64,000 bases of DNA from Raja brachyura (Eukaryota). Below the pieces are notes generated by a model, which was given only the letters and a program-made list of their open reading frames with translations, searched no databases and was not told where the DNA came from. The stretch's first letter is position 1. Each line of letters begins with the position of its first letter. The DNA is taken from contig OY740786.1 of NCBI GenBank assembly GCA_963514005.1, forward strand, positions 18,910,001-18,974,000, in the 5' to 3' direction. Positions 25,425 through 56,434 of this stretch are shown piece after piece. The translations under genes and the position numbers were made by a program.

Positions 25425-25745
25425 GGGTGTGGGTGTGTGTGTTTATTTGTGAACCTGTACATGCCTTCATGCTATGTGTGCACANNNNNNNNNNNNNNNN
25501 NNNNNNNNNNNNNNNNNNNNNNNNNNNNNNNNNNNNNNNNNNNNNNNNNNNNNNNNNNNNNNNNNNNNNNNNNNNNNNNNNNNNNNNNNNNNNNNNNNNN
25601 NNNNNNNNNNNNNNNNNNNNNNNNGTGTTGTTGTGGGGGTGTGTGTGTGTGTGGGGGGGGTGTGTGTTGTTGTGGGGGTGTGGGTGTTCGTGTGTGTGGG
25701 TGTGTGTGGGTATGTGTGTGTGTGGGTATGTGGGTGTGTCTGTGT
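25362..25745. repeat. (GT)n microsatellite region containing an assembly gap (N at 25485-25623)
   Basis: Visible directly. Confidence 0.97.
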
Positions 25746-40610: not shown

Positions 40611-40719
40611 GGTAGGTTATGGAAAAGCAGTAGGGGAAGTAGTTTGCAGATGGAAGTGAAATAATGACAGGGTGAGTTGATTAGAGCAGATACAATATAA
40701 GGAAGATCAGGGGGACCCT

Positions 40720-41189
40720 TGTTATACAAGGATTTTGCCCGAGCAGTCTGTGACCTAGACGCCACATCTGTAGCGCTGTGTATTGCTTTACGCGCCAGTC
40801 TGCGATTGATCCCAAAGACGAGGTGGCCTTGCTCGGATGCAGTCCCCTGCCATTGGTTATAGTTTGAATATGGGGGCAGCGCTATTGGCCACGACTTACC
40901 GGCGGTTATTTCAACAGCTGATTTCTTACCTGTGTAAAGGCAGGCTCCAGTAAGCCATAAGTTAGTTCATATACGAGAGGGGTTCACCGATGGGCTGAGT
41001 CACGATCAGCACCGCGGATGGAGGCAGAGAGATAGGGAGGTATGCTGCTGTAAAATGGACTCCGTGCATACCAAGACAAGTATTGTTTTTGTTCTCTCTC
41101 TTGCCAATAAAACTGATTTGTAACTAAACAAACGAGTGAGCTTTTTTCTGTTCTACTAGTCAGATCCTTGAACCTGTTCCCTTGCAACA
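40720..41189 (+). repeat. 5' LTR (470 bp)
   Basis: TG...CA ends; two ATTGG (reverse CCAAT) boxes; AATAAA at 41106-41111; homologous to 42209-42798. Confidence 0.9.
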
Positions 41190-41191
41190 AT

Positions 41192-41209
41192 TGGCGTAGT
41201 CGGCAGGAT
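41192..41209 (+). promoter_or_regulatory. Primer binding site complementary to the tRNA-Ser 3' end
   Basis: TGGCGTAGTCGGCAGGAT, 2 nt after the LTR CA, is the reverse complement of the vertebrate tRNA-Ser 3' end ATCCTGCCGACTACG-CCA (18 nt, from recall). Confidence 0.92.
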
Positions 41210-41228
41210 CTGACGAATAGAATAGAAA

Positions 41229-41889
41229 ATGTTTGGTAAAAAGAAATAGCAAACAAGATGGCTTGGTGCAGGCCAAGCACCCCCGCAATAAGCTGCTGCC
41301 CTCGGTACAGGGGAGCCTGCAGCTGGCCATGCTGCAGGTGGAACCAAGAACCTTGAGTCTTCAAGCTCCTCTAATGCTTTTAATGGGTAACGAGGGAGAA
41401 ATTTATTGTTGTAAATTTCACTCGAATGGATCTGTAGGATTTGAACGACTCGTATTGTTTCGGAAATATATGGCGAGTGCGATAATTATGTTACATTGAA
41501 AGGTCACAGTGGAGCAGTTCTGGAATTGCATTATAACACAAATGGCAGCATGCCTTTTCCAGCATCGAGAGACAAAATTGTAGCAGTGTGGGACTGTGAA
41601 ATGGGTGAAAGAATCAAGAGACGTCAAGGTCACATATCCTTTGTGAATTCATGTTATCCGTACAGGAAGCGACGACAAAACAGTGAAGCTATGGGACATT
41701 CGGTAGGCGGCTGCAATCCATAAGTTTCAAAACACGTACCAAGTACTGGCAGCAACGTTTAATGACACAAAGGATCAGATTTTCTCTGGTGGTATTGGAG
41801 ACGGCATTAAGGTTTGGGACCTCCCACAAAACAAGTTAATTTGGACCGTGCGTGGTCATACAGTCTCAGTGACTGGTTTGACCCTGAGT
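41229..41889 (+). pseudogene. SNRNP40: Processed, 3'-truncated retrocopy of SNRNP40 (U5 snRNP 40 kDa WD40 protein)
   Basis: Collinear peptides LQAPLMLLMGNEGEIYCCKFHSNG, YGECDNYVTLKGHSGAVLELHYNTNGS, AVWDCEMGERIKRRQGHISFVNSCYP, TGSDDKTVKLWDIR, FQNTYQVLAATFNDTKDQIFSGG, IKVWDLPQNKLIWTVRGHTVSVTGLTLS match recalled SNRNP40; no introns; frameshifts, small deletions and a stop. Confidence 0.93.
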
Positions 41890-42105
41890 GGGGTAAAAGA
41901 GAACATCACCAACCTCACTGACCACATCCAGCAAGCCAGAGAGAAGCTTCGAAGGGTCGGAGAACAGTACCACGACGACAACCCCTCGGGAGGATGGTAG
42001 CCTTTCGGGATGTTTGGAGGCTGGTGGACAACAGTGGTGCACTGGGGACTGACCATTGGGACAATCTTGTTGGCCATAATATTATGACGTTGTATATGCA
42101 GATTG
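41890..42105 (+). pseudogene. Remnant of a retroviral env TM subunit (C-terminal heptad, Trp-rich membrane-proximal region, transmembrane helix)
   Basis: Translates GVKENITNLTDHIQQAREKLRRVGEQYHDDNPSGGW*PFGMFGGWWTTVVHWGLTIGTILLAIIL*RCICR; sits just before the PPT and 3' LTR; two N-glycosylation sequons (NIT, NLT). Confidence 0.7.
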
Positions 42106-42197
42106 GCATCACGACCGCGTGGACCTCATTACATCCTGTGGGCAGGATGTAATGAGGTAACGCCTGTAGGCCGGATGTTACGGTAACCAGACTCTTC

Positions 42198-42208
42198 GAG
42201 GGGTGGAA
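42198..42208 (+). promoter_or_regulatory. Polypurine tract
   Basis: GAGGGGTGGAA immediately 5' of the TG that starts the 3' LTR. Confidence 0.8.
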
Positions 42209-42798
42209 TGTTATACGAGAATTTTGCTCAAACAGTCTGTGCCCATAGCGCTGCGGCCGGTAGCGCTATATTTAAAACTCATAGCACTGCAACCAACAGC
42301 TCTTTGCTTAAATCACCACATGCTACGCCAACAGCTTTAATGTTTTGCAAGCCAAACTGGCAGCGCAGTGTGTTTTACTTTACGTGCCAGTCTGCGGCTG
42401 ATAGCGCTCTGTTCCCAAAGGGGGGGGGGGGACTCGCGCGGATGCAGTCCCCTGCCATTGGTTATAGTTTGAATTTGGGAGCAGCGCTATTGGCCAGGAC
42501 ATACCGGCGGTTATTTCAACAGCTGATTTTTTTACCTGTATAAAGGCAGGCGCCAATAAGCCATAATTTAGTTCATGTACGAGAGGGGTTCACCGACGGG
42601 GTGAGTCGCGATCAGCACCGCAGACGGAGGCACAGAGAGAGAAAGAGACGTGTGCTGCTGTTATACGGAACCCGCGCATACCAAGCCAAGTATTGTTTTT
42701 GTTCTCTCTCTTGCCAATAAAACTGATTGTAACTAAACAGACGAGTGAGCCTTTTTCTGTTCTACTAGTCAGATCCTTGAACCTGTTCCCTTGCAACA
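42209..42798 (+). repeat. 3' LTR (590 bp)
   Basis: TG...CA ends; ATTGG boxes; TATA-like GTATAAAG near 42538; AATAAA at 42716-42721; about 120 bp more U3 sequence than the 5' LTR. Confidence 0.9.
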
Positions 42799-42931
42799 AC
42801 CATAAAGGAGGATAAGATGGCAGCTGATGTGATTACATGCCCCACAATCAATAGCACGCACAAAATACCATACACACAATCTCACTCACACTCACTCACA
42901 CTCACACACAATCACGTACACACAGACACAG

Positions 42932-48644: not shown

Positions 48645-49758
48645 ACCCCATCCACCACCATAACATATTCATTCCTTCGACGACAGGTATATAGTGGCTG
48701 CAGAGTGTACATTGGTGCTCTCCCCACATTACACAAGCAGCATTTTGATCCACAATCGCTACTATAGGTCCACCACCCATTTTCTGGCACCCTTGTTTCC
48801 AAAGCATTTCTGGATTATCCGTTTAGCCAGGCCGACAGAGGTCACGGCTTCGAGAGGAGTCCAACGCTACCGGAATGGTCCACCTAGGCAGCCGAGGAGC
48901 CGAGATATCGGCCCGCAAAGTCGGCCTTGGAAGTCGGCTATGGGAACGGATATGCCAGCTCCAGCCAGGCCAGAGCTCCAGAGCTCCAGAGACCCAGAGC
49001 TCCAGAGCTCCAGAGCCCCAGCCGCTGGGAGAAAATTCAACCCATCAAACGGTGGGGAAGTCCCGATGAGGTCACAATCAGCCACCTCACCCAGCCTAGG
49101 CGTCACATTTCAGGGGGGGCGGGTTGGATTTCACGTGCGGTCTTGGAATTTCGTCCTGGATTAAAGGAGGTGCCGGACCACCAGTTGCCAGAAAATCGGA
49201 GGTGGACATATACTAATAAGGACAAGAGCAGCAAGTACATTGGAACACCACCATCTGTGTCGAGCATAATCCTGACTTGGAAATATTTCTCCTCGACAGC
49301 AAAGTAACCTTCACAAGGGTGGCAAGAGTTCAAGACGGTGCTTCAAGCCAGGGGATGTTCAAATGGGCATCCCAGAACCTTCCTGAAGTCAATGCCAATG
49401 ATGCCCAAATCTCCAAAAAAACAAATGAACAGAATAAAACATCCATCCATTCACTCAATTCAGGTTGGGTCAAATCCAAATTAAACTCTCTCTGACCCGT
49501 CACTGTCTCAACCCAACCAGATTATCATCCACTCCATCACTACGAACCGCACTCTCCCCCAAATTAAAAATGAGAACTCTTGAACACAAACTTCTAAGAA
49601 ATCTGAATTACTTTATAAAAGCTATTTTTTCTGACTGCTATCTTATCCATTGACAGAGGGAGAGAGGAATTTGCTTTTGCCACAAAATAGTAAGATTAAA
49701 CGAGAACTTACCAGTTTGAAGTTTGATCTTTATTTTATGAGGAGTTGCGATGAGGGAT

Positions 49759-49794
49759 TTCGTGAAGAACCCGCCAGCACGCATGCGCGACATA
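49759..49794. repeat. DIRS inverted terminal repeat core (pairs with 54983-55018)
   Basis: TTCGTGAAGAACCCGCCAGCA(C/A)GCATGCGCGACATA, 36 bp with 1 mismatch against the reverse complement of 54983-55018. Confidence 0.93.
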
Positions 49795-49910
49795 CTTCAA
49801 AGCAGCGGTGTGGAATCACAGAACCAAGACCAAGAAATGACTTGTTATAGTAAGATTGAAGAGACTCTAGTTACCAGTTGACTTTATGATCGAGGGTTGG
49901 GAGCGGAGGG

Positions 49911-50023
49911 CACGAAATCCCTCATCGCAACTCCTCATAAAATAAAGATCAAACTTCAAACTGGTAAGTTCTCGTTTAATCTTACTATTTCATTTCGGAG
50001 TCACGTGAGTGACTTCGTGAAGA
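49911..50023. repeat. DIRS internal complementary region (ICR)
   Basis: 49911-49990 is the reverse complement of 49685-49764; 49988-50023 is the reverse complement of 55009-55044; the halves share TTT. Confidence 0.95.
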
Positions 50024-50171
50024 CTTCAAAGCTTCTGTGATTTCACGCCCTGGACAACGTCCATGCTATCACACACGCTACTGAAAGGATGGACAGGAGT
50101 AACCAATTTCCGAAGCTACTATTCTGAAAAATAATAATATTTATTAATAACAACAACAAAGAAAAAACCCC

Positions 50172-51161
50172 TCACTGAGGGGTGAATGTATGTTCTCGGC
50201 CTGCATCTAGCACGGCTCCTGCGAACATTCCAGGTATGGTGACGGGTTTATTATAAAACCGCTGAAAGGTGGCTTCACTGGCCCATCCCGCTGTGGCAAG
50301 TATCTGGTCCATGGGCACCTCCATGACCTTTGCCGCCGACGTAGATGCTGCCCTGGTGGAATGGGATTTAAAAACATCAGTGTCAATACCTGCCTTTTTT
50401 AAGACGATCCTGAGCCATCTGGAGATCGTCTGTGCCGTCACTCTATGGTGAGGTTTTTTGTGGCTGATGAGCAGGTATTGCTCCATTCCCCTTAATTTCC
50501 TCGTCACTTTAATATAGTGGCGGATATGGGTGGCTATGCACAGCCTAGCATCAGCGGGGTATGCTGGAAACACCAGCTGCAGCCCTGTGAATCCAGGTCT
50601 ATGCTGCTTCAGCAATTCATCAATGAAGAAAGTGACCCGCTCAGGGGTAGAGATCATCTTGTCAATATTGGCCTTGTGAAGCGTCTGCACCCTTTGTGCC
50701 GAAGTGAGCGCCATCAACATCACCAACTTCAGGGTGAGTTTGTCCAGTTCAAGCCCAGCCATGGGTGACCACGTCCTGAGTAGGGTCAGTACTTTTCCAA
50801 TATCCCAGGTGATGTTGTAACGGGGCCTTGGCGGGTTGGAATTAAATATTCCCCGCATCAGCTTGGAGACCAGTTTGTTAGATCCTACCTCAATATTGAG
50901 GTAGGATGATAGGGCACTCCTGGCGCTATTGATGGCACTGTAACTGAGATGTTCATCATGGTGTAGCCCCGCAAGAAATTCCAGCACGTCTGTGATGGAG
51001 ACGGAGTCATATGCAATGTCCAGGCGGCCGCAATAGGTTTCCCATTTCCTGATGTGCGATAAGTATTGCCGTCTTGAGGACTCCCTGCATGATGCTCCCA
51101 TGGTATCCATTGTCCTTGATGATAGACCATACTGTAGTAATGGTCTGTTCAAATCCTGCAA
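50172..51161 (-). CDS. DIRS tyrosine recombinase (integrase)
   Basis: 329-aa ORF with catalytic R (SAQRV), HSTR, GW and FQRFY motifs; overlaps the end of the MT domain. Confidence 0.95.
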   Translation of the reverse strand: MQDLNRPLLQYGLSSRTMDTMGASCRESSRRQYLSHIRKWETYCGRLDIAYDSVSITDVLEFLAGLHHDEHLSYSAINSARSALSSYLNIEVGSNKLVSKLMRGIFNSNPPRPRYNITWDIGKVLTLLRTWSPMAGLELDKLTLKLVMLMALTSAQRVQTLHKANIDKMISTPERVTFFIDELLKQHRPGFTGLQLVFPAYPADARLCIATHIRHYIKVTRKLRGMEQYLLISHKKPHHRVTAQTISRWLRIVLKKAGIDTDVFKSHSTRAASTSAAKVMEVPMDQILATAGWASEATFQRFYNKPVTIPGMFAGAVLDAGREHTFTPQ

Positions 51162-51380
51162 GCCAATAGATTCAAGTGACTATAGCAGGGGTGTGGTTTC
51201 CCTGTGACAGGGTTCGTCACCAATTGTGGGCAACCCTCTAAGAGGACCCATGGTTGACTTATCATTCCAAGGACCACCGGATACCATGACTGCGTAGGCC
51301 AGTCGGGTATGATAAGGATGCCCTTAGCAGCATCGAGCTGGATTTTCCGCAATACCCGACTGATGAGGCAAAATGGAGGA
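51149..51380 (-). CDS. C-terminal part of the DIRS N6-adenine methyltransferase-like domain, frameshifted from ORF2
   Basis: PPFCLISRVLRKIQ...ILIIPDWPTQSWYP...LLACRI continues the canonical YAFPPF motif if one C is restored near 51378-51380. Confidence 0.85.
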
Positions 51381-53157
51381 ATGCATAGAAAAACCATTTC
51401 CCCCAATCTAGCGAGAACGCGTCCATCGCCATTGCCCCAGGATCTGGTTCCCATGATGCGTATGTTGGTACCTGATGGTTCAACCGTGACGCAAAAAGGT
51501 CAATATCCGGTTTACCAAATTTGGCTGTAATTTTGGTGAATATTTGGGAGTTCAACATCCACTCGATGTTGTCATTAAATTTCCGTGACCTGGTGTCCGC
51601 CACTGTGTTGAGCTTACCTGGTAAGAAGGTAGCTGAGATCCAAATATTCCGTTGAATACACCAGAGCCAAATTGTATTTGCCAATTCATCGCATGAAATT
51701 GACCTGGTACCGCCCATATGATTCAGATATGCCACCGCAGTGGTGTTGTCTATTTGGAGACGGACATGAGTGTCAGTAATGTTTGAACAATAAGCTCTTA
51801 GTCCGTGGAATGCTCCCAGCATCTCCAAATAGTTTATCCCCTGTGCTGACAACAGAGTAGCTTCAAGTGAGTCCCATCTACCTCCACAACTGGTGTTGTT
51901 GTCCGTAGCTCCCCAGCCATGGGAGCTTGCGTCTGTTTGTAAGTATACCACCGGACGAGGCACAATGATGGGTTTGAATGAGTTATGGATATTGCCAATC
52001 CACCATTGCAACTCAATTTTTGCCTTGAGCGGCAGCTGCATAGGTCTATCAAAATGTCCAGCATTTGATTTTAATGCTGCTATTTTTGATCTTTGCAAAT
52101 TTTGATAATGTAAAGGTCCAAATTGAGCAGCTGGAAAGACTGCTACAATTTTCCCAATTACCTTGGCAGTTTGTCTAATTGACGGTATTCTGGCGCAGAC
52201 CAGATTCTTACATGCTTGAAACACATCCCCAACTTTATTAGTTGGTATGGTGGTGATCATGCGATTGGCGTCTACCGTGAACCCCAGGTAGTCCATGATC
52301 TGTGCGGGGAAGAACTTTGATTTGTCTGGATGGATAATAAATCCCATTTTTTGAAAAATGTCCACTGTGGCTGAAACTGCCAATTCTGCTGACTCCAGTG
52401 TATGTCCAATTATCAGAATGTCATCCAAATAAGCCATGACCGTATGATTTTGCCTCCTTAGTGTAGCTAGTACTGGCTTGAGTAGTTTAGTGAACAGTCT
52501 GGGGGCTGTGGTATGCCCATTGGGTAATGCTTTGTATTGCCAAAGCTGATCCATCCAGATAAACTTCAAGAACTTTCTGTGATGTTTCCGAATGGATACT
52601 GAATAGTATGCATCTTTTAAATCAATGCATGCCATGAAGCAGCCCTTCGAAATCAAAGATTTGGCTGTTTCGAACGTGTCCATTTTGAAATGAGTATATT
52701 TTACAAAGGTATTCAAGTGAGTTAAATCTATAATGACCCGACATCCACCATCTTTTTTGGTTTTAGTAAATATATTAGATACGAATTCAATTGGTTCATG
52801 TGTGGTTCTTTCTATCACCCCTTTCTCTTGTAATCTCAAGATTTCAGCATAGCCTTCTGCTGATTCCTTTTTGGAAAGTGCAAATTTGCGATTTGGCATA
52901 TGCTGAGGTGGAGGCAATTGGCCATTAATAAACTCAATTTCATAACCCTGAATACTTTGTAAGATAAACTCATCTGAGGTGATGGTTTCCCATGCCTCCT
53001 TAAATCCCCGTAGTCTGCCCCCAACCTGTGAGGTTAGACATGCAAGTGCATGGAATCCAGACCGCCTTACCTTCATGGTTATCGGTGGTCCCTGATATGT
53101 TTGGTGGGACGTGGAGGTGCTGGGTTGCGTTGTTGATGTGGAGTCCGCATTTTCCAT
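51262..53157 (-). CDS. DIRS ORF2: reverse transcriptase, RNase H and start of the Dam-like methyltransferase
   Basis: VGGRL, IDLKDAY, YLDD (RT); TDAS, INYLE, IDNTTAVAY, PGKLNTVAD (RNase H); DLFASRLNHQ (MT); leaves the MT frame after FYAF. Confidence 0.95.
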   Translation of the reverse strand: MENADSTSTTQPSTSTSHQTYQGPPITMKVRRSGFHALACLTSQVGGRLRGFKEAWETITSDEFILQSIQGYEIEFINGQLPPPQHMPNRKFALSKKESAEGYAEILRLQEKGVIERTTHEPIEFVSNIFTKTKKDGGCRVIIDLTHLNTFVKYTHFKMDTFETAKSLISKGCFMACIDLKDAYYSVSIRKHHRKFLKFIWMDQLWQYKALPNGHTTAPRLFTKLLKPVLATLRRQNHTVMAYLDDILIIGHTLESAELAVSATVDIFQKMGFIIHPDKSKFFPAQIMDYLGFTVDANRMITTIPTNKVGDVFQACKNLVCARIPSIRQTAKVIGKIVAVFPAAQFGPLHYQNLQRSKIAALKSNAGHFDRPMQLPLKAKIELQWWIGNIHNSFKPIIVPRPVVYLQTDASSHGWGATDNNTSCGGRWDSLEATLLSAQGINYLEMLGAFHGLRAYCSNITDTHVRLQIDNTTAVAYLNHMGGTRSISCDELANTIWLWCIQRNIWISATFLPGKLNTVADTRSRKFNDNIEWMLNSQIFTKITAKFGKPDIDLFASRLNHQVPTYASWEPDPGAMAMDAFSLDWGKWFFYAFLHFASSVGYCGKSSSMLLRASLSYPTGLRSHGIRWSLE

Positions 53158-54845
53158 GCTGGCCGCTGAGGGCCTAGTCCTAAAAAAGGCCTGGGCTGAG
53201 GAGGCTGTCGATATTGAGGAGGCGCCGGAATGTAGGTCCTTGCTGGCCTGTCGGTTTGACCTCGCGGCCTAAAATAAGGTGTTTTCTTGGCCGGAAGTCT
53301 GGTCACAGTATGTGATCTCATCAGACCCACTGTTTTAGCATGGTCATCTAGGTCTTTGACCTGCTTCGGGAGGTCTTCTCCGAACAGCTGTCTGGGTGGT
53401 GGTGTAGGAGGTGCTCTGCATAGTCCCGCAAATTTGGGGTTCAATGAAGGTTTAATTATGCTTTTCCTGAAAGCGTTGATTTCGTACTGCGTATTACAAA
53501 GCAGTGCTAGAGCATCCTCCTGTTCGGTGTTTAAATCAACTCCGTCCACTGACCTTGCAAAAGCGGTAATCCCAGACGTAAGTAGTTTCAGGATTCTCTG
53601 CAGTTTCACTTCCTGCGCTCTGATGCCCGGGCTGATATTGCCCCAGATTGGCATGTTTACAATCGGCACGTTGAGTGAATTGCAATTTCCTGGAGCCTTG
53701 TGTCTTTCCATGGCCTTCGCAAGGACCTCCTCCTGTAGCTGGTGGTTCGTGAGGTAATCTATGGTCGCGGCCAGTTTAGTGTTGAGGGGTTGTCCTGAAG
53801 ATACGGGTAACCCGAACTTGGCTGCCACATCCAGGAGCTCTTCCTGGGGGACCTCAGGTACTGCTGGGGCATGTACCAGGATCTCCTCCTCTTCTGGCCT
53901 CATGCTGTCCATAGATGGTGATGGGGATATGTCCATAAGTCCCCTGGAACTGTGAGCGTCCTGTCTTTGATTTAGTAGGACTTGTTCCAATATCCTCTCC
54001 ATACGGTCCAAGCGCCCTTCATCGTGCATGTATGGGCGGTTAGAGTCCTCATGCCTGAAGGAACTACTGAGGCTCCCGTCGTCGGCCCGTACCTCGTCGA
54101 GGTAATATCGGTGCCGTGACGATGTGTCGCTACCAGCCGCCTCGGCGAAGCTGAGCGATTCCCACGCGGATCTGCTCAAGCGCCTCCTTTTCGCTGAGCT
54201 GCATCCGGCTGCCTCTGAGGGCATAGGTGGGGAGAGGTCGGCACCCAACGCCGCAGCGTGGTGACCCGACATCCGCGCGGGCTTGCCGACTGTCCTTGAT
54301 CTGGACCCAGACGGCGTACGGTCCCGACCCGCCCCCAGCGGGGGAAGCGGTGACCGTGACGAGACTCCACCCGCGTGACTCCTCCTGGTCCCCCTGGGTG
54401 GTGAGTCCATGCTGGCCCTCCTTGGTCTGCCAGTGGATTCGGGTCTCGCCGATTCACCAGACCACATTCTGGTGGCTCCTGATGAGACCTCAGCCCTAGA
54501 AGGGCTAGGTAGTCGAGCTCTATCCCTGGTTCCTTCGAGAGGGCTCAGGGAGAAGGGCCGTGCGGCAGCACGCGGGTCCCTTTTGCTCGTCTCCGCCAAT
54601 GACCCAGTGGGTGACAGAGAAATGGAGTCAGGGTGCCCCTGCTCCGGCGCTGTACCGAGTTCTTGCTCTGCGGGACCCCCGCTAGAGCACAGCTGCGTCG
54701 GTGAACCGGGTCCTGTGATAACAGGGCTCCCCGATTTGCGCGCCTTTTTCCCGGCCCGTCCTACCGCTGTAGACGGGAACTCCGGGATGGGTGGCCGGCA
54801 ACTCCTTCCAGAAGTTCTGCGGCCCTTACTCCTTTTTACGTCCAT
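53079..54845 (-). CDS. DIRS ORF1 (gag-like), 588 aa from the ATG at 54845
   Basis: Uninterrupted ORF; S/P/R-rich N-terminus and a more conserved-looking C-terminal region (P.NC..L.VP.VN..IW; LFG.DL...VK); first ORF of the element. Confidence 0.85.
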   Translation of the reverse strand: MDVKRSKGRRTSGRSCRPPIPEFPSTAVGRAGKKARKSGSPVITGPGSPTQLCSSGGPAEQELGTAPEQGHPDSISLSPTGSLAETSKRDPRAAARPFSLSPLEGTRDRARLPSPSRAEVSSGATRMWSGESARPESTGRPRRASMDSPPRGTRRSHAGGVSSRSPLPPLGAGRDRTPSGSRSRTVGKPARMSGHHAAALGADLSPPMPSEAAGCSSAKRRRLSRSAWESLSFAEAAGSDTSSRHRYYLDEVRADDGSLSSSFRHEDSNRPYMHDEGRLDRMERILEQVLLNQRQDAHSSRGLMDISPSPSMDSMRPEEEEILVHAPAVPEVPQEELLDVAAKFGLPVSSGQPLNTKLAATIDYLTNHQLQEEVLAKAMERHKAPGNCNSLNVPIVNMPIWGNISPGIRAQEVKLQRILKLLTSGITAFARSVDGVDLNTEQEDALALLCNTQYEINAFRKSIIKPSLNPKFAGLCRAPPTPPPRQLFGEDLPKQVKDLDDHAKTVGLMRSHTVTRLPAKKTPYFRPRGQTDRPARTYIPAPPQYRQPPQPRPFLGLGPQRPAWKMRTPHQQRNPAPPRPTKHIRDHR

Positions 54846-56434
54846 GTCCCTGTGGGAGAAAACACAATTACTCACACAGGACAACCAACTCAAGGTTGTC
54901 TATACTTACCTGAGTGGCCCTTATGAAGGGCTGGTGGTGAGCCGCGCTCCTCTCCAGCCGTCGGCTGCAATGCGAGCGACGATATGTCGCGCATGCTTGC
55001 TGGCGGGTTCTTCACGAAGTCACTCACGTGACTCCGAAATGAAATTACTTCAGAATTGGCTACAAATACAAAGTCAATGTGTACAAAATTTTGCCTAATG
55101 ATGTTATAAAACACCAATCAAAAGTAATAGCGATTTATATTAGTAAGACTGGCTGCAACCCATGCTATCAGTCAAAGAAACTGCCAAAGAAATTACTTAA
55201 TTTTCAGCCAGGCTGCCCAACTGGAACAATGTAGACTACGGCTAGTAGCTGGCACCATCGAGAAGCCCAGGTTTTGGGGTGCAGCTAAGCTGCCTGTTGT
55301 AGGCAGATGGGGTTCTTGTGCATTTTTAAATCGTGGCTCCTGATGCTGTAATTTGGGGCCCTGTGTTGTTTTACATCAGAAATGCATAAATCCTGTAGAG
55401 ATTCGGAGCCACCATTAAAACCTGGTAGCAATCGGGATCAGAACGGGCAAGTACAGATAAAGAAGAATTTTAAGGTCTAACATGTCAGCCAGGGGATGTT
55501 CAAATGGGCATCCCAGAAGCACAATAATCTCCCTCTTCCCTGGCCTTGATGGTCAAGAACACTGCCAAACGTTCACCCCATTTGGGACATTTCCTTGGCT
55601 TTCTGGTCGCAATTTAACTTTCCTTTCCACATTTCCACATGGGGCAGTATTTAATATTTAATCAATGGAGTCAAAATTGTCCAAGCAATAGACAATAGAC
55701 AATAGACAATAGACAATAGGTGCAGGAGCCACGCATTAGCGCTATTACTGGCTCCATTATTTGACACATCATGGTCTTGATTGTGGTTAAAAGCAGTCTG
55801 GTGTTTTAGTGAATGGCCAATATAGGAATTATGCTGTTCTAACCGCATGTAACCCCCCCATTCACGTCAGATAGAATCCCTTTCTAATCTGCGTACAAAC
55901 AGCTGAAGATCTGTGCTGTCCAAAGCCCAAAGGAACAGCTTGTCATCTGTCTTTTTGTGTGATGTTCAGACATAGTCACCATTAACATCAGATAATTATA
56001 AGCCACCAATGTGGGAAGCATTGAATCACATCCTAGATTAATAATTATCCACTGTGACTGAGGTTAGAGACTCAATGAAAATCAAAAGCATTGTGGAGTG
56101 CACAAAGCAGGAATTTTGCAATTTCTGCTGCCTTTATATTTAGAACCACTTCAAAGGAAGTCATTCAGTAATAGGCTGGGATTCCTCCTGATGTTTATTC
56201 CCACTTCACTGCTGCACCTAGTTGTCAGATCTTCTGCAATCACCAAACAGTAACATGCCTGCTACTTGACACCAAAGACAGGACTGGGTGCCAACAGGAG
56301 AGTGATTGCTTAGTGGTCCAAAAAATAATGGCTTTGCTTTGGCTGTTTTTCATCTGAAATTACCACGGCTCTTGTATTGGGAGACATAATAGAGAATGAT
56401 CTATTCTCTAGCATGGATTATTTGCAAGCTATTG

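Follow-up and report, generated by a model that had tools for sequence, protein, structure and literature searches.

A stretch of Raja brachyura DNA 64,000 nucleotides long (the window) carries, at 41821..42186, a WD40-coding frame that runs without a shift into the membrane anchor of a retroviral env gene, and the question is whether this join records a chimeric protein that once served a retrovirus or a passenger carried along by copying. A sequence-only reading of the locus had described the peptide and both of its stops in one frame, as they indeed are, and had suggested that the ancestral element may have expressed a truncated, membrane-anchored WD40-env chimera in the manner of transduced oncogenes. 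With a probability of roughly 0.78, the locus is best explained as a broken copy, one among at least 79, of a small non-autonomous endogenous retrovirus that contains a fragment of spliced SNRNP40 message; the fragment was likely acquired through template switching and then likely dispersed as a passenger by helper enzymes.

The window copy has the organization of a whole LTR element, in which the SNRNP40 piece replaces most of gag, all of pol, and most of env (Table 1). Its LTR pair shows 86% identity with gaps counted and 9.6% mismatches over 417 aligned bases, and the LTR pairs of 23 family copies differ by 9.3 to 19.6% (median 14.7%). An exact 5-bp target duplication is present in four of the seven family copies with both ends visible. 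The primer-site sequence has 14 exact matches in the genome and the reversed control has none, and all four of the matching loci that were scanned are tRNA-Ser(AGA). Within the env remnant, the membrane helix lies at about 42028-42084 (hydropathy 1.88 over 19 residues), and stops occur at 41998 and 42085. The cargo of this copy is damaged by frameshifting deletions near 41264, 41467, and 41659 and by a stop at 41704. The stop-free stretch spanning the join, 41707-41997, is devoid of any ATG.

Table 1 Features of the window copy of the SNRNP40-carrying element (window coordinates)
Feature	Position	Strand	Remark
Whole LTR element	40720-42798	+	2.1 kb
5-bp target-site duplication, 5' copy	40715..40719	+	1 mismatch to the 3' copy
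5' LTR, TG...CA	40720..41189	+	about 120 nt shorter than the 3' LTR
Primer-binding site	41192..41209	+	complementary to the 3' end of tRNA-Ser(AGA)
Short upstream ORF	41229..41249	+	gag ATG of the parent retrovirus, stop after six codons
SNRNP40 cargo, intronless	41256..41891	+	host codons 11-234 (exons 1-6), about four WD repeats
Host/env switch region	41882..41891	+	8/10 bases common, same frame in both parents
Second join	41898..41901	+	150 nt of env gone between two 4-nt repeats
Env TM remnant	41902..42186	+	C-terminal heptad-like stretch, Trp-rich segment, membrane helix, tail
Polypurine tract	42198..42208	+	from sequence
3' LTR, TG...CA	42209..42798	+	
5-bp target-site duplication, 3' copy	42799..42803	+	

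Elsewhere in the window, a young-looking DIRS-type retrotransposon occupies 49685-55045 on the reverse strand, with open frames of 606 aa (no Pfam match), 668 aa (RT, E 2.5e-21, and a weak methyltransferase match), and 335 aa (tyrosine recombinase, E 3.5e-7). Its ends are inverted; an 80-nt inverted pair at 49685-49990 is perfect, as is a 32-nt direct repeat at 49346/55487. In addition, 140 N lie within a GT microsatellite at 25485-25624.

The upstream part of the peptide had been attributed to SNRNP40, and this identification is borne out by the best of 188 PDB matches (E 3.5e-30) and by the host SNRNP40 gene on contig C31, which has GT-AG introns and of which the cargo is an intronless copy. 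The cargo spans codons 11-234 out of 348, that is, two-thirds of the spliced message, and contiguity across each of the five exon junctions was seen in 46-62 of the 79 copies. Over this span, the host protein is identical to the Amblyraja radiata SNRNP40 record at 224 of 224 residues. The complete SNRNP40 protein is a propeller of seven blades; the cargo stops inside a WD repeat, after its GH (residue 224) and before its WD (252). The loss of introns is accompanied by two LTRs, a primer site, a polypurine tract, and a target duplication, and the cargo takes the place of internal viral ORFs, while poly(A) and a LINE-type duplication are absent.

The downstream part was read as the env TM protein, and the relatives of the element confirm this. 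Searching with the env tail retrieved copies that carry the same DNA but no cargo; in these, the DNA upstream of the tail reads as a retroviral TM protein that includes CX6CC and an ISD-like stretch. The Pfam family TLV_coat matches the host-free copy L064 from the switch point through the membrane helix (E 1.5e-7) and likewise matches a long chimera, L155 (E 9.3e-6); in this homologous stretch of the two copies the features of a gamma-type env TM protein (ISD-like stretch, CX6CC, heptad, and membrane helix) are present. The window env peptide alone gave nothing meaningful in Pfam, because its ISD/CX6CC segment has been deleted. Host-free relatives have the same LTR, primer site, and leader as the chimera and carry gag-like DNA, which follows the shared leader in L127, L128, L130, L132, L133, and L135; other relatives carry RNase H and integrase remains.

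A dUTPase domain occurs in 8 of 13 integrase matches, and together with the 5-bp duplication these dUTPase-bearing relatives suggest a class III parent with an env of the gamma type. Defining features of class III (ERV-L/ERV-S-like) retroviruses with such an env are found in the skate family as the tRNA-Ser primer site, the 5-bp duplication, the TLV_coat env, and dUTPase among the integrase relatives, whereas its best integrase matches are only 57% identical (bichir). The parts of PMC6114882 available to us were of no help in classifying the parent. The relatives read included no helper whose pol is unbroken. Four pol-bearing ones (L070, L176, L177, and L178, on C1218, C1237, C419, and C25) resemble one another at 88-90% over 2 kb, and a LINE-bearing upstream region is common to at least three of them, which suggests segmental duplication of one broken provirus. 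In the host-free copies L064, L182, and L183, gag-like DNA runs nearly straight into env; these copies seem to represent another deleted lineage of this virus.

The junction between host and env DNA had been placed near 41889/41890. The frame is kept there as described, but the point falls inside a region where the two parents agree, and a second join just downstream had gone unnoticed. A look for microhomology at the junction, which had been proposed, found the shared bases listed in Table 1 at the 3' switch; host and env have 275 look-alike pairs of 10-mers in the region, this one included. Since 93 of these pairs (34%) are in frame, the warning that an in-frame junction arises by chance one time in three was well placed, and microhomology was rejected as the cause of the shared frame. 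At the 5' switch only 1-3 bases are shared, as judged by eye. Among the 79 copies, 5 are long, 57 are short, and 17 have no visible junction. The long copies (L026, L043, L140, L155, and L159, with L043 assigned from junction measurements) retain the 150-nt env segment, which comprises the ISD-like stretch and CX6CC; the window copy belongs to the short class. The frame is kept over the join in 40 of the 47 short-type copies in which both anchors were measured and no insert was present, out of 59 examined.

On the 5' side, an open reading frame from the ATG at 41229 through the TM helix had been envisaged, and this we reject. That ATG is the gag start, which in the window copy meets a stop at 41247-41249 and is out of frame with the host ATG at 41258; the 29-nt spacing between the two ATGs was seen in 34 of 45 copies and the stop at codon 7 in 29 of 45. 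Any chimera would therefore start at the host ATG, which has a strong context in 42 of 59 copies.

Host DNA was found at 79 of the 88 loci examined, on 29 contigs and without duplicates, and the count is a minimum because the searches scored part of their candidates (40 of 164 in the chimera search). The searches gave 164 candidates for the chimera versus 61 and 18 for host-free relatives. None of 42 near-full copies is unbroken, although break counts may be inflated by BLAST gap placement. Both env stops had been regarded as later decay, and the copies agree: among aligned copies, the stop at 41998 occurs in 3 of 33 chimeric and 0 of 17 env-only ones, and that at 42085 in 10 of 56 and 0 of 18, respectively, the counts being drawn from 79 chimeric and 21 env-only loci of which the remainder did not align at those sites. 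The codon at 42130 is a stop in 10 of 18 env-only but only 10 of 54 chimeric copies, so that an end of the chimeric frame at 42186 in the short form is not unreasonable. A shared early frameshift, which would have spoken against translation of the fusion, was looked for and is absent from most copies: no small frameshift is common to more than 6 of about 68, and the sole majority-shared small indel is a 3-nt deletion (47 of 58).

Several larger deletions mark subsets of the family. Two shared env deletions, one of 131 nt in 11 copies and the other of about 50 nt in 5, cause a frameshift ahead of the membrane helix; a deletion of 27 nt leaves the frame intact in the 11 copies that have it. Five of the measured 131-nt copies also lack 263-265 nt of cargo, and their shifted host frames stop within 7-12 codons. 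A tree of 59 copies (host nt 352-700; 20 copies omitted for low cover, L140 not included) was star-like, with terminal branches of 4.04 and internal branches of 0.33, and placed three long copies at its base and L026 nested inside with little support. The deletion classes were not recovered as supported clades in this tree, which is too star-like to test them; some deletions may accordingly be recurrent. As separate observations on structure, the minimal member L078 (G000:C42, ~14836.9 kb) has between its two LTRs nothing but the leader and some 36 nt of SNRNP40; a 28-nt unit immediately upstream of the polypurine tract is tandemly expanded in the 3' untranslated part of L084, L136, and L019; and a unit of about 36 nt is expanded in the 3' LTR of L043.

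The element is also covered by sequencing-run contigs from organisms B-F. The host/env join is crossed by contigs in C (41808-42012, with no gaps), D, F, and A, and the 131-nt join was found in contigs of A and F. A 340-nt contig from organism B matches the window copy with 8 differences and no gap across the private 26-nt deletion of that copy, which makes it likely that the window-copy insertion predates the split of organism B from the lineage of this genome. In organism D, two runs of one study (X19, marked as probably DNA, and X20) gave contigs over the leader/cargo and cargo/env joins beside one that follows the spliced host message; their status as RNA being a guess, this is a hint and not evidence of transcription. 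A search for expression listed no RNA run with the element.

As both env stops are minority damage, the frame of the founder was likely open, and given that most copies share no early frameshift, the founding element was likely able to encode a WD40-env chimera beginning at the host ATG. To this extent the proposed ancestral chimera stands, whereas no sign was seen of the selection typical of a transduced oncogene. The product would have been tail-anchored, with its WD40 piece in the cytosol, as it has no signal peptide and its helix lies near the end. v-Myb and v-ErbB have env-coded C-terminal residues. A protein search with the env part, aimed at longer proteins and at WD40 fusions among them, had no scoring candidate out of 102, which is weak evidence.

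Comparison with the parental SNRNP40, which had been suggested as a test, revealed no protein constraint. Among singleton changes the ratio of replacement-plus-stop to silent is 3.29, versus 3.33 for sites, and private changes in 56 copies gave a pN of 0.071 and a pS of 0.086 (pN/pS 0.83); these values indicate neutral decay following insertion. The 30 near-fixed differences from the host, 12 replacement and 18 silent, suggest constraint at first sight, but 15 of the 18 silent ones are common to all long copies, close to the about 13 expected from host evolution alone. The near-fixed changes that arose inside the family comprise 9 replacements (3 at CpG sites) and 3 silent changes, and 6 of the 9 replacements strike residues conserved in 7-8 of 8 outgroups. 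Without CpG sites, the ratio of 6:3, which is based on 9-12 sites and 3-5 long copies, fits an omega of 1, rejects 0.1 (P 0.010), and does not reject 0.2 (P 0.10). The trunk events (the switch, the 3-nt deletion, and the 150-nt deletion) all keep the frame, a coincidence of about 1 in 9, given that 34% of look-alike pairs are in frame and that the locus was flagged on account of the first join. The chimera was probably not under selection as a protein, given the neutral decay, the changes at conserved WD40 residues, and the continued spread of frameshifted sub-lineages. Expression and selection of the cargo protein, which characterize viral oncogenes, were not found, the numbers on internal branches being small; nor was the unbroken frame at an orthologous locus that marks a functional retrogene, other species being represented by short contigs only.

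These observations are consistent with a scenario that begins with a parent family of the same LTR, primer site, and leader, which carries gag-like, RNase H, integrase, and gamma-type env DNA. Reverse transcriptase would have jumped from the viral RNA to a co-packaged, spliced SNRNP40 mRNA at the 10-nt look-alike within the region for env TM, followed this mRNA as far back as codon 11, and then resumed on the viral template immediately downstream of the gag start. The product retains its cis signals (LTRs, primer site, leader, and polypurine tract) and was re-inserted many times with 5-bp duplications. A long form with the env ISD/CX6CC segment probably gave rise to the dominant short form and this to further deleted sub-lineages; the forms themselves are preserved, and their order is the probable one. 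Although translation of the founder RNA from the host ATG may have given an incomplete propeller bearing a membrane helix at its C terminus, the protein would not have been needed, small size and intact cis signals being sufficient to account for the spread. The copies have decayed neutrally since insertion.

A selected protein would give the join a different meaning. The tail-anchored truncated SNRNP40-env protein of the founder could have aided spread, for instance if it tethered U5 snRNP partners to germ-cell membranes or titrated them there, with the loss of ISD/CX6CC as an in-frame refinement. Such a benefit would fit the three in-frame trunk events, two of which are independent of the flagging, as well as the minority status of both env stops, the strong context of the host ATG, and the abundance of the chimera relative to host-free relatives. 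It is nevertheless unlikely: conserved WD40 residues were replaced during the spread, frameshifted and cargo-deleted sub-lineages reached 5-11 copies, the cargo ends inside a WD repeat and is preceded by an upstream ORF, and no near-full copy is unbroken. Equally unlikely is the boldest form of the idea, in which a retrovirus joined a spliceosomal WD40 fragment to its own env anchor and refined it by in-frame deletion of the fusion/immunosuppressive segment into a membrane-tethered decoy that boosted spread, an endogenous fossil counterpart of oncogene transduction.

Premature stops destabilize retroviral RNA, and an open frame rather than a protein could have been favored if translation shielded the element RNA from nonsense-mediated decay while the amino acids drifted. 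We consider this quite unlikely, as the element RNA is only about 1.5 kb and unspliced, a sub-lineage with an early frameshift spread nonetheless, and the events are few, even though it would account for in-frame trunk events alongside unconstrained residues. Far less probable is that a LINE-made SNRNP40 pseudogene landed in an existing provirus and was trimmed later by deletions. The genome is rich in LINEs, but the cargo lacks poly(A), a 3' UTR, and an internal target duplication, its end falls within exon 6 where host and env look alike, and it replaces kilobases of viral DNA. Capture by template switching followed by passenger spread thus remains the preferred explanation.

The structure is that of LTR-mediated retroposition, with unusually many copies. 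LTR-mediated retrocopies that were re-copied as non-autonomous elements have been described (Tan et al. 2016, PMC5131818), and in the parts of that paper available to us the cases are young, occupy one or a few sites, and come from species that include no cartilaginous fish. Those cases and the skate family share a partial spliced mRNA in place of internal viral ORFs, in the sense orientation, further copying as a non-autonomous element, and perhaps microsimilarity at the switch. The skate family, by comparison with what is accessible of PMC5131818, has at least 79 old copies (LTR pairs 9-20% apart), preserves its structural forms, and resides in a cartilaginous fish. Similarly, HERV-K captured FAM8A1 mRNA with microsimilarity at the joins and gave a processed pseudogene (Jamain et al. 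2001, as cited in the accessible part of PMC5131818); the skate family differs in retrovirus group and host and in having its cargo in frame with an env membrane anchor. The analogy with v-myb, which the sequence-only reading had drawn, holds for the 3' recombination point of AMV in env (PMC2442608, seen in part), and extends to the truncated host cDNA recombined in and to helper dependence (PMC2442608 and PMC10970396, likewise in part). It fails for selection: in these partial accounts the AMV cargo protein drives cell growth and is selected, whereas no protein constraint is seen in the skate element, whose gag start is unfused and which spread in the germ line. Literature searches found no report of an SNRNP40 retrocopy or ERV capture in cartilaginous fish, although the family may be in Repbase or Dfam, and none on HERV-S, class III, gamma-type env, and fish or on env-encoded v-myb residues, subscription papers lying outside the search.

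The skate family is therefore a real in-frame SNRNP40-env join in a large, old, and dead set of retroviral retrocopies. Through it, the range of host-mRNA capture by retroviruses comes to include cartilaginous fishes, and it shows that a host-cargo chimera can outgrow its parent family in abundance. Had the chimera been selected, it would represent a novel means by which an endogenous retrovirus manipulates germ cells. The steps are documented by the long, short, and deleted forms that survive, and these offer a rare test of cargo selection, of which there was seemingly none here. On the practical side, annotation and RNA mapping in skates can be misled by the dozens of SNRNP40 pseudogenes.
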